Source: Eubacteriales bacterium
GTDB taxonomy: Bacteria > Bacillota > Clostridia > Oscillospirales > CAG-382
Length of the DNA stretch: 64,000 bases
Assembly (NCBI GenBank): GCA_045651785.1
Contig: JAZRTE010000086.1
Coordinates: 352 to 64,351, forward strand
Reading direction: 5' to 3'
Position numbers and translations under genes: made by a program. Of the stretch, positions 31,642 to 32,526 are shown in pieces (the first letter of the stretch is position 1; the number at the start of each line of letters is the position of its first letter). The notes beneath the pieces are model-generated. The model was not told the origin of the DNA. It worked only from the letters and a program-made list of their open reading frames with translations, and ran no database searches.

Positions 31642-32526
31642 TCAGAACGAAACCCTCATTACTTCGTGAAGGTTGCCTTGCGTATCTTCTATTGTTTCGA
31701 CATCAATCATCCTCAAAGATTGCATCATGTACACCACTGCCCATACTTCCTCAAATTGTGCTGAGAGTCCAGTGTACCCGTTCTTCAAATCAAATGCGAT
31801 ATCGTACGGCGAAAAAACGGGAGCACCGCATTGAAGATTATCTTTTAGTATTTCTGCAATGTCCTTTGCCAACTTTGATTTTTTCACAGCTGTTTTATAA
31901 GAGAATTCCAATAAAGGATCACAATCGAATCCGTATATACTCTCGTCACCATCAGGATTGAACCAATTCCAATAAAGAAATATGAATCGTTCAAGATCAT
32001 CTCCATCTGAGGGACACCATGTTTTCATAATTTTGGAGAATCGAATCATGAAATTATGAAGCACACGGAATTCTTCTTCAGATAAAAAGCTGCCTTGATG
32101 GATCATAAAATGTGTTTCGTTGTTTCTCAGCTTTTGCAGTAATTCAAGCTCTACTTGCAATGATTCTTCTTGAGCAAGGCTTTTACCAAACAATTCTTGA
32201 TGCAACGAAATTAAATCTTTGAATTGGATTGTTTTGAATTTTGAGAGTTCTTCACTCTGTAACTTTTCAAAAAATCTATTCAAGTTCGTTGCATTAGCAT
32301 AGTCGAGCACGAGTTTCGCATTGCTTTTTGGTTTTCGCACATCTGCAACTCTGTGATCATTATTATTCAGCAGCATTTGCTTCATAATAAGCTCGACGGC
32401 ATTATGGAGCGAAGATACAAAGTTTTTCTGATATTGAAGTGTTGCTTTTCCGTCTTTTATGTCATTACAATAACGTATAGCCGCTGCCCATGCTTCAAAG
32501 GCATTGTCCATTAATATTGGTCTCAT
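31642..32526 (-). CDS. HEPN-motif protein (putative RNase), 294 aa
   Basis: AAGGAG lies 6 nt upstream. The helical N-terminal half ends in LLQKLRNNETHF, an R-x4-H motif with Asn after the Arg (codons at 32110..32127), which is the hallmark of HEPN RNases. The C-terminal ~120 aa are unassigned. Confidence 0.7.
   Translation of the reverse strand: MRPILMDNAFEAWAAAIRYCNDIKDGKATLQYQKNFVSSLHNAVELIMKQMLLNNNDHRVADVRKPKSNAKLVLDYANATNLNRFFEKLQSEELSKFKTIQFKDLISLHQELFGKSLAQEESLQVELELLQKLRNNETHFMIHQGSFLSEEEFRVLHNFMIRFSKIMKTWCPSDGDDLERFIFLYWNWFNPDGDESIYGFDCDPLLEFSYKTAVKKSKLAKDIAEILKDNLQCGAPVFSPYDIAFDLKNGYTGLSAQFEEVWAVVYMMQSLRMIDVETIEDTQGNLHEVMRVSF

Follow-up and report, generated by a model that had tools for sequence, protein, structure and literature searches.

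The window analysed here is a 64,000-nucleotide (nt) stretch of contig JAZRTE010000086.1 from a Eubacteriales bacterium, a member of the gut Clostridia, and all positions below are given in window numbering. At 31642..32526 its minus strand carries a gene (hereafter the HEPN gene) for a 294-amino-acid (aa) protein that begins with MRPILMDNAFEAW (translation) and combines a predicted N-terminal HEPN domain, with a putative ribonuclease motif, and a winged-helix-like C-terminal domain. The gene and the parts of its product were located as follows.

31642..32526, minus strand: HEPN gene, 294 aa, from the list of open reading frames (ORFs) and its translation; stop codon at 31642..31644
32533..32538, minus strand: ribosome-binding site AAGGAG, 6 nt 5' of the HEPN-gene ATG, read from the sequence
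32017..32526, minus strand: N-terminal HEPN domain, residues 1-170, from AlphaFold2 (AF2) models, Pfam and Foldseek
32380..32394, minus strand: E45-x3-K49 in helix 2, the second HEPN signature E-x3-[KR], from alignment A1
32110..32127, minus strand: predicted catalytic motif R134-N-N-E-T-H139 (R-x4-H), conserved in relatives
31912..32016, minus strand: linker, residues 171-205, with the lowest predicted local distance difference test (pLDDT) values (74-79) and the lowest conservation
31645..31911, minus strand: C-terminal winged-helix-like domain, residues 206-294, from AF2 secondary structure and partial Foldseek matches

Three further genes lie next to the HEPN gene on the same strand, together with two candidate transcription signals.

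35691..35719, minus strand: best promoter-like site, TTGATT-17-TATAAT with TG, ahead of the four genes, from a consensus scan only
35473..35655, minus strand: small HTH_17 (excisionase/MerR-like) gene, first of the predicted operon (Pfam HTH_17, E 2.5e-15)
32634..35486, minus strand: gene for a 950-aa membrane protein, upstream of the HEPN gene and in the same predicted operon, from the ORF list
30797..31585, minus strand: 262-aa gene, downstream of the HEPN gene and last of the predicted operon (phrog_26561, E 1.2e-9)
30610..30633, minus strand: terminator-like hairpin with T-run, 3' of the 262-aa gene, from a consensus scan only

Because a promoter-like site lies 5' of the four genes and a terminator-like hairpin 3' of them, with no terminator-like element found between them by the consensus scan, the arrangement suggests a single operon in the order HTH_17, 950-aa, HEPN and 262-aa gene, the HEPN gene being third of four. 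The HTH_17 gene and the 950-aa gene, the latter taken at its longest reading frame, have 14 nt in common, and the database copy of the 950-aa gene begins at M10, giving 941 aa. An HTH_17 homologue was also found upstream of the 950-aa/HEPN pair in another locus (L019). The 262-aa protein has a weak match (26% identity) to the human-gut phage contig MT835838. No homologue of its gene was found in any other HEPN locus examined, making it locus-specific, and it was rejected as a conserved partner or antitoxin because of this absence.

The HEPN domain and the C-terminal domain

An earlier interpretation of this DNA without database searches (the sequence-only reading) had proposed a HEPN ribonuclease on the strength of an RNNETH motif. 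The motif lies where it was placed, at 32110..32127 within a 294-aa ORF (R134 to H139), and the ORF is on the minus strand; the 12-residue string LLQKLRNNETHF that had been quoted for the same 18 nt in fact spans 32107..32142. The caution that a single R-x4-H can arise by chance was justified, since ~0.79 matches to R-x4-6-H are expected by chance in a protein of this length and composition and the motif alone therefore proves nothing. Among 96 full-length family representatives, clustered at 50% identity and thus with less than 50% mutual identity, R134 was kept in all 96, and N135 (the Asn directly after the Arg, to which attention had been drawn), H139 and F140 were each kept in 95; E137 was kept in 88 and T138 in 84. 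The motif is taken as real because of this conservation across relatives. In alignment A1 (98 sequences; mean column identity 23%) the sole invariant columns were G26, K34, E45, K49, R134 and F140, and the most constrained features of the protein are the R-N-x-E-T-H-F block and the E45-x3-K49 pair. A chance motif in an unrelated helical protein, for which the expectation of ~0.8 matches per protein of this composition would speak, is refuted by the invariance of the motif in the family, by a Pfam HEPN-family match (E 3e-6) and by the canonical position of the motif in the predicted structure, and we give it almost no probability.

A search with the single sequence against a set of 5.8 billion proteins recovered 387 homologue clusters at 90% identity, an exhaustive HMMER scan gave 207 representatives at 50% identity, and the family profile gave 575 clusters, nearly all of them unnamed and without a Pfam domain. 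The relatives came from metagenome-assembled genomes (MAGs) of gut Clostridia and from Fumia xinanensis (Acutalibacteraceae, Faecousia, Ruminiclostridium). Two long members that could have been domain fusions, P0252 with a glycosyltransferase and P0241 with an amidohydrolase, were set aside as probable gene-call fusions.

The HEPN superfamily is characterized by R-x4-6-H with a polar residue (N/D/H) after the R, by E-x3-[KR] in helix 2, by an insert between helices 2 and 3, and by a motif that lies across the junction of helix 3 with the loop leading to helix 4 (PMC3710099). The window protein has R-x4-6-H, the polar N135 after the Arg and E-x3-K in helix 2. The Pfam model DUF3644 (PF12358) matches its residues 5-176 (E 3.2e-6; 27.3 bits), and the same model was matched at E<0.01 by 35 of 98 diverse family members, with a few matching HEPN_Apea or Csm6_HEPN. 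Among the clusters listed with precomputed Pfam annotation only one carried PF12358, and a profile search from A1 returned no bona fide DUF3644 protein, the 120 matches listed being in-family proteins only. NCBIfam and PHROGs gave no match for the protein. The family thus reads, from its sequences, as a divergent sister group of DUF3644 and not as a curated member of it.

AF2 was run with A1 on the full-length protein (pLDDT 92.4; predicted TM-score 0.91) and on the N-domain alone (pLDDT 94.2), and both runs gave the same elements.

Residues 6-24: helix 1 (AF2)
Residues 30-54: helix 2, containing E45 and K49 (AF2)
Residues 55-123: insert of four helices and two 3-residue strands (AF2)
Residues 124-136: helix 3, ending just past R134 (AF2)
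Residues 137-149: loop containing H139 (AF2)
Residues 150-169: helix 4 (AF2)

This predicted topology fits a HEPN domain: four helices form the core, helices 2 and 3 are separated by a large insert, and the motif falls where helix 3 ends. The sequence-only reading had described an all-helical N-terminal region of ~140 aa and had placed the motif where helix 4 begins; the region is longer (~170 aa), with an extra helix at 150-169 and two 3-residue strands, and in the model the motif is found at the C-terminus of helix 124-136 with H139 in the following loop, which is the canonical HEPN position. In a Foldseek comparison of the N-domain with the PDB, HEPN proteins made up 12 of the top 19 matches, all of them weak (E 0.7-2). 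The top match was the HEPN-MNT protein 8xeh_B (probability 0.90; TM-score 0.64 on the target), and further HEPN matches were to the toxins 8yuf and 8xdj, to HepT (6m6u, 6m6w, 7bxo, 5yep) and to Csm6 (6tug). The full-length model gave nothing significant against the PDB, HEPN matches appearing only after the N-domain had been re-predicted alone, and neither the single protein nor the family profile retrieved anything relevant when searched against PDB sequences. The protein thus has the sequence features of the HEPN superfamily, and the fold is probable from the models. The profile search, fold prediction and conservation test that had been proposed as checks all came out in favour of the HEPN assignment (DUF3644 over residues 5-176; AF2 topology; R134 and H139 kept), which also draws on E-x3-K, the helix 2-3 insert and the HepT/HEPN structural matches; ribonuclease activity is inferred.

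The C-terminal half had been said to match nothing recognizable, and this is true at the level of Pfam and PDB sequence searches. Pfam found nothing in residues 171-294 at E<=10, and among nine other diverse C-termini seven gave nothing at E<=10 and two gave scattered chance-level matches. AF2 predicted, with good confidence for the last ~90 residues, four helices (210-216, 218-228, 240-250, 258-270) and then two strands (274-280, 286-292) that form a beta-hairpin, and the order of the elements from helix 218-228 onward (helices 218-228, 240-250 and 258-270, strands 274-280 and 286-292) fits a three-helix bundle with a hairpin wing. The only coherent Foldseek matches of the full-length model covered 70-100 columns and were to PadR (9qbd, probability 0.98; 6abt, 0.94), FurB, the N-domains of O-methyltransferases and the winged helix of Orc1/Cdc6, and in BFVD to phage 'helix-turn-helix' proteins; all of these matches were partial, at E >= 0.25. 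A pattern F-[ED]-[ED]-[VI]-W...L-x-[MI]-I-[ED]-[VI], running from helix 258-270 into the first strand, recurs in distant members and in our reading resembles the junction of recognition helix and wing in winged helix-turn-helix (wHTH) domains. The part contains three scattered Cys and no CxxC pairs.

The C-domain is homologous across most of the family, and its rate of evolution is roughly double that of the HEPN domain (mean pairwise identity 19.5% from residue 205 to the end and 17% in the linker, compared to 39% in the HEPN domain), and because of this rate a sensor or regulatory role is plausible. The earlier proposal of a novel regulatory or sensor domain therefore stands in part: no sequence family was found, but the last ~90 residues of this sequence orphan probably form a winged helix, so that the fold is probably a common one, and the architecture is one already described. 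The resemblance to winged-helix DNA-binding domains would also suit a non-catalytic regulator, that is, a winged-helix factor with a HEPN-like domain for ligand binding or dimerization as in MtlR-type proteins, and some HEPN families have lost catalysis (PMC3710099). Those families, however, also lost R-x4-6-H (PMC3710099), whereas conservation in the window protein is highest at R, N, H and E-x3-K and lowest in the putative DNA-binding domain. We regard such a regulator as very improbable.

The island and the loci of homologues

The HEPN gene lies on a candidate integrative island, for which the following features were identified.

27865..27951, plus strand: tRNA-Leu(CAG), likely integration site of the island (ARAGORN and Rfam)
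28348..29481, minus strand: tyrosine integrase at the tRNA-proximal edge of the island (Pfam Phage_integrase, E 3.7e-11)
36779..38365: large serine recombinase

From the tRNA-Leu the gene order is integrase, 262-aa gene, HEPN gene, 950-aa gene, HTH_17 gene, divergent XRE repressor, SWIM gene and serine recombinase. Housekeeping genes flank the island, with thioredoxin and MgtC on one side and Fe-hydrogenase and lactate dehydrogenase on the other, and the GC content is 34-39% over 30.5-36 kb compared to 42-45% outside. A search for att-type direct repeats (14 nt or longer) on either side of the island found none, and Rfam detected only the tRNA in the window.

Three other observations were made on this part of the window. 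The presence of a tyrosine integrase, a serine recombinase, a divergent XRE/HTH_17 pair and a SWIM gene within 27865..40000 may reflect two nested or tandem elements. A region of 1.3 kb at 29480..30800 has no long ORF and contains, at 29572-30019, ~5 copies of a ATCATTTC[AG]A[TA]AGGA-like motif; these repeats could be arm-type sites of the integrase or belong to a decayed gene, and Rfam found nothing there. At the far edge of the island, a 454-aa ORF (38618..39982, plus strand) has no Pfam or PHROG match.

Loci of homologues were found by a single-sequence genome scan, no stretch of the alignment being conserved enough for an alignment-based scan. In the 15 other loci (identified below by L numbers) the HEPN gene always lay behind a gene on the same strand, the identity of which varied. 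In the loci without a 950-aa homologue the upstream neighbour was as follows.

L003 and L020: SduA/Shedu (PADLOC, E 4e-106)
L001: PDC-S31/DUF2971 protein
L016: DUF2290 protein
L009: HNH protein
L012: Mrr-type protein, by motif
L014: GNAT fusion
L017: PyrF, by our reading of the sequence
L022: phage tail protein, by our reading of the sequence
L031: 385-aa protein without assignment

AbiE, TIR and SIR2 genes, an AAA+ ATPase gene with a trypsin-like protease gene, and integrases were also found near the homologues. Known defence genes adjoined the HEPN homologue in ~9 of 16 loci, a small, non-random sample for which no statistics were calculated. The window gene and its homologues lie in variable regions acquired by horizontal transfer. 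The varying upstream neighbour together with this defence-island pattern speaks for a self-contained gene. A BLAST cluster that joined the Shedu-like 267-aa neighbour of L003 and L020 to the 950-aa family was rejected as an ORF-extension artefact. In one of the loci (L031 1..8874) the distant member P0143 shares only the HEPN domain; upstream of it lie a 2972-aa TIR/LRR/Flg_new giant and the 385-aa protein, and downstream an AAA ATPase and trypsin-like protease pair, which makes this locus a further example of a densely packed cluster of defence-like, unannotated genes.

HepT toxins of HEPN-MNT pairs are the best structural matches of the N-domain and the gene is found in an operon on an integrative element, both of which would suit an addiction module in which a HEPN toxin is held in check by a neighbouring antitoxin, as in the type VII system HepT-MntA, and stabilizes the island. 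However, no minimal nucleotidyltransferase (MNT) or other conserved small partner was found in the flanking genes with Pfam, PADLOC or NCBIfam, the neighbours on both sides vary between loci, and the window protein is twice the size of HepT and has an extra domain of its own. We consider such a module improbable.

From sequence and by analogy with described systems, we hold with moderate confidence that the product of the HEPN gene is a HEPN ribonuclease made of one polypeptide and belonging to the DUF3644/EC042_2821 branch, and that this gene, carried as island cargo, most likely provides defence or abortive infection on its own, with phages or plasmids as the target; its stand-alone nature is proposed because the upstream neighbour differs between loci. 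Several observations weigh against this. The DUF3644 score lies 0.3 bits below the gathering cut-off of 27.6, so that membership was narrowly missed, and since no member has a better DUF3644 E-value than the window protein, probably none passes the cut-off. No homologue was found in IMG/VR, in the phages of INPHARED or in the plasmids of PLSDB, and the link to mobile elements rests on MAG contigs. The winged helix could equally mediate autoregulation or dimerization and not sensing. Finally, a gene of the 950-aa family precedes the HEPN gene in six of the 16 HEPN-side loci, the window included, and these loci together with the operon position keep a partnership of the two genes in play.

The 950-aa membrane protein and the slot behind it

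The 950-aa family (alignment A3; ~175 clusters) has a conserved N-domain of ~470 aa, for which neither Pfam nor the PDB gave a match, a single transmembrane helix flanked by KRKKRIK, and a hypervariable C-terminal part that in relatives carries DUF6273, TPR/Sel1 or RHS/YD. Its gene lies directly upstream of the HEPN gene and on the same strand in the window, L013, L018 and L015, and is separated from it by one small gene in L019 and L021. A metagenome search from A3 recovered the pair from the side of the 950-aa gene, with a HEPN gene downstream in two of three informative loci (L024 and, frameshifted, L025). This co-occurrence is far above random, because both families are small (~175 and ~575 clusters). 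The DNA homology between the window and L013 (35471..31639; ~3.8 kb; 88%) covers exactly the 950-aa and HEPN genes and ends at the HEPN stop codon. All this would suit a two-gene system, a membrane-linked defence or exclusion module in which the 950-aa protein, with its conserved N-domain in the cytoplasm, one transmembrane helix and a hypervariable outer C-terminal domain, serves as sensor or regulator for a HEPN effector. The slot behind the 950-aa gene could be cited in the same sense where it holds other proteins with motifs of this kind, namely a different, 216-aa protein with an RNKIVH motif and a weak HEPN_RiboL-PSP match (E 5.6e-4) in L035 and a 333-aa protein with RSEAIH in L023. Both were tried as relatives of the HEPN-gene family and rejected, no profile similarity being found by hhalign with single sequences.

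Set against a two-gene system are ten HEPN loci with adequate flanks that lack the 950-aa family (L001, L003, L009, L012, L014, L016, L017, L020, L022, L031), and loci of the 950-aa family without a HEPN gene of the window type (four, L033, L034, L036 and L040, or six when L023 and L035 are counted; L037-L039 also lack it). In L033, L034 and L036-L040 the slot contained nothing, 138-aa and 364-aa proteins, WapI, or a 347-aa protein with an HNH protein, and such unrelated contents fit a cargo hotspot behind a backbone gene of the element. Divergence was also discordant between the two genes: the window and L013 share 91% identity in the 950-aa partner and 71% in the HEPN protein, L018 and L019 share 90% and 64%, respectively, and L018 and L015 share 98% in the HEPN protein with partners that are unrelated past residue 297. 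We therefore think a two-gene system unlikely. As a separate observation, the HEPN homologue of L025 (9565..10484) is split into two overlapping ORFs, by a frameshift (possibly a pseudogene) or by an assembly error.

Small HTH genes, TnpV, DUF6809, HTH_26 and serine recombinases are common to the loci of the 950-aa family that lack such a HEPN gene. In a 200-nt sliding comparison, the 3' half of the 950-aa gene and the spacer behind it were 96-100% identical to L013, and identity then fell to 88% and to 65-81% inside the HEPN gene, giving an abrupt mosaic breakpoint in the first ~400 nt of that gene (32300..32530 in the window). This suggests that an allele was replaced by recombination, and the drop in identity looks like the allele shuffling typical of defence genes. 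Because the pairing is broken in many loci and the divergence of the two genes is discordant, we take the 950-aa gene to be a putative part of the backbone of small integrative elements and the slot behind it to be a cargo hotspot where one HEPN allele would be exchanged for another. The slot may be a defence hotspot or part of a two-part system. A bolder version of the latter, which we judge quite unlikely, is a surface-sensing abortive-infection system in which the hypervariable extracellular domain (DUF6273, TPR or RHS-type in relatives) would sense an event at the cell surface, for example phage adsorption or mating contact, and signal through the cytoplasmic domain to an exchangeable HEPN ribonuclease; this ribonuclease would be DUF3644-like in the window and RiboL-PSP-like in L035, and the type may be one not yet described.

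Proposed mechanism and comparison with known systems

As a stand-alone HEPN ribonuclease, the protein would work by pairing of two HEPN domains, whose R-x4-H motifs would together form a metal-independent ribonuclease site; H139 would act as the general base that activates the 2'-OH, R134 and N135 would stabilize the transition state with the assistance of E45, and the cleavage products would carry a 2',3'-cyclic phosphate (inferred from PMC3710099). By analogy with the defence proteins HEC-08 and Ishtar, the enzyme would be inactive until the variable C-domain recognizes a cue from the invader, nucleic acid or protein, whereupon RNA cleavage would stop growth or remove the invader.

If this is true, a gut-Clostridia branch of several hundred unannotated clusters joins the single-gene HEPN ribonuclease immune proteins (HEC-08, Ishtar, PDC-S19), and its different C-terminal module could show how such enzymes recognize invaders. 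Proteins labelled 'hypothetical' in gut metagenomes could then be annotated concretely as HEPN-domain proteins, with R134/H139 and E45/K49 as catalytic residues. The 950-aa gene with its exchangeable slot for HEPN-like or nuclease genes may be the more interesting lead, as a defence-gene hotspot or a new two-part system. Nothing here overturns current understanding.

HepT/MntA provides the closest solved structures for the N-domain (target-normalized TM-scores of 0.5-0.65), with a shared R-x4-H ribonuclease site. HepT, however, is ~130 aa long, lacks the helix 2-3 insert and the C-terminal domain, and needs an adjacent MNT antitoxin, which was absent from the genes flanking the HEPN gene in Pfam, PADLOC and NCBIfam searches.

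Anantharaman et al. (2013; PMC3710099) placed DUF3644 among the HEPN families, as EC042_2821, with fusions to wHTH, restriction endonuclease (REase) and Zn-ribbon domains and with occurrences in restriction-modification and defence contexts (PMC3710099). The N-domain of the window protein resembles EC042_2821 in its R-x4-H, in the polar residue after the R and in E-x3-K. The C-terminal partner in EC042_2821 is an REase of ~180 aa, with a wHTH at the N-terminus in some members, whereas the C-terminal part of the window protein (~125 aa, two beta-strands) matches no nuclease family and contains a winged-helix-like domain of ~90 aa in place of an REase.

HEC-08, a defence protein encoded by one gene, has at its N-terminus a HEPN domain of the DUF3644 type, in which mutation of H128 abolished defence (10.1101/2024.01.29.577857) and whose best PDB match is the HepT toxin SO_3166 (5yep) (Payne et al., 2024; 10.1101/2024.01.29.577857). 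The N-domain of the window protein likewise has 5yep among its top matches. Compared by description, the C-terminal part of HEC-08 is zinc-finger or zinc-ribbon-like, whereas that of the window protein lacks CxxC and is made of helices and a hairpin, so that the HEPN domain is common to both and the remaining architecture is not; furthermore, HEC-08 is embedded in Hma systems and the window gene lies on a Clostridia integrative island.

Ishtar (ist1/ist2) is a monogenic immune protein with an N-terminal HEPN domain (DUF4145 or DUF3644) and an uncharacterized C-domain (10.64898/2026.07.06.735840); it is found in variable loci near defence genes and acts on plasmid RP4 in Acinetobacter (10.64898/2026.07.06.735840). 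Its C-domain is described as having 5-7 beta-strands and three helices, and by this description the window protein, with two strands and 4-5 helices, is set apart from it.

The only PADLOC model to match the window protein at E<=1 was PDC-S19 (E 2.2e-6; 25.3 bits), which was also matched by 22 of 98 family members. Both proteins are ~300-330 aa long with the HEPN domain in the N-terminal half, but only model positions 9-163 of 330 are matched, so that the match falls short of full length, the C-terminal halves do not align, and PDC-S19 is itself only a candidate. A HEPN domain with a variable C-terminal domain is thus an architecture already described for single-gene defence proteins (EC042_2821/DUF3644, HEC-08, Ishtar), and what is new here, in our reading of the sequences, appears to be an unannotated, Clostridia-centred branch with a winged-helix-like C-domain.

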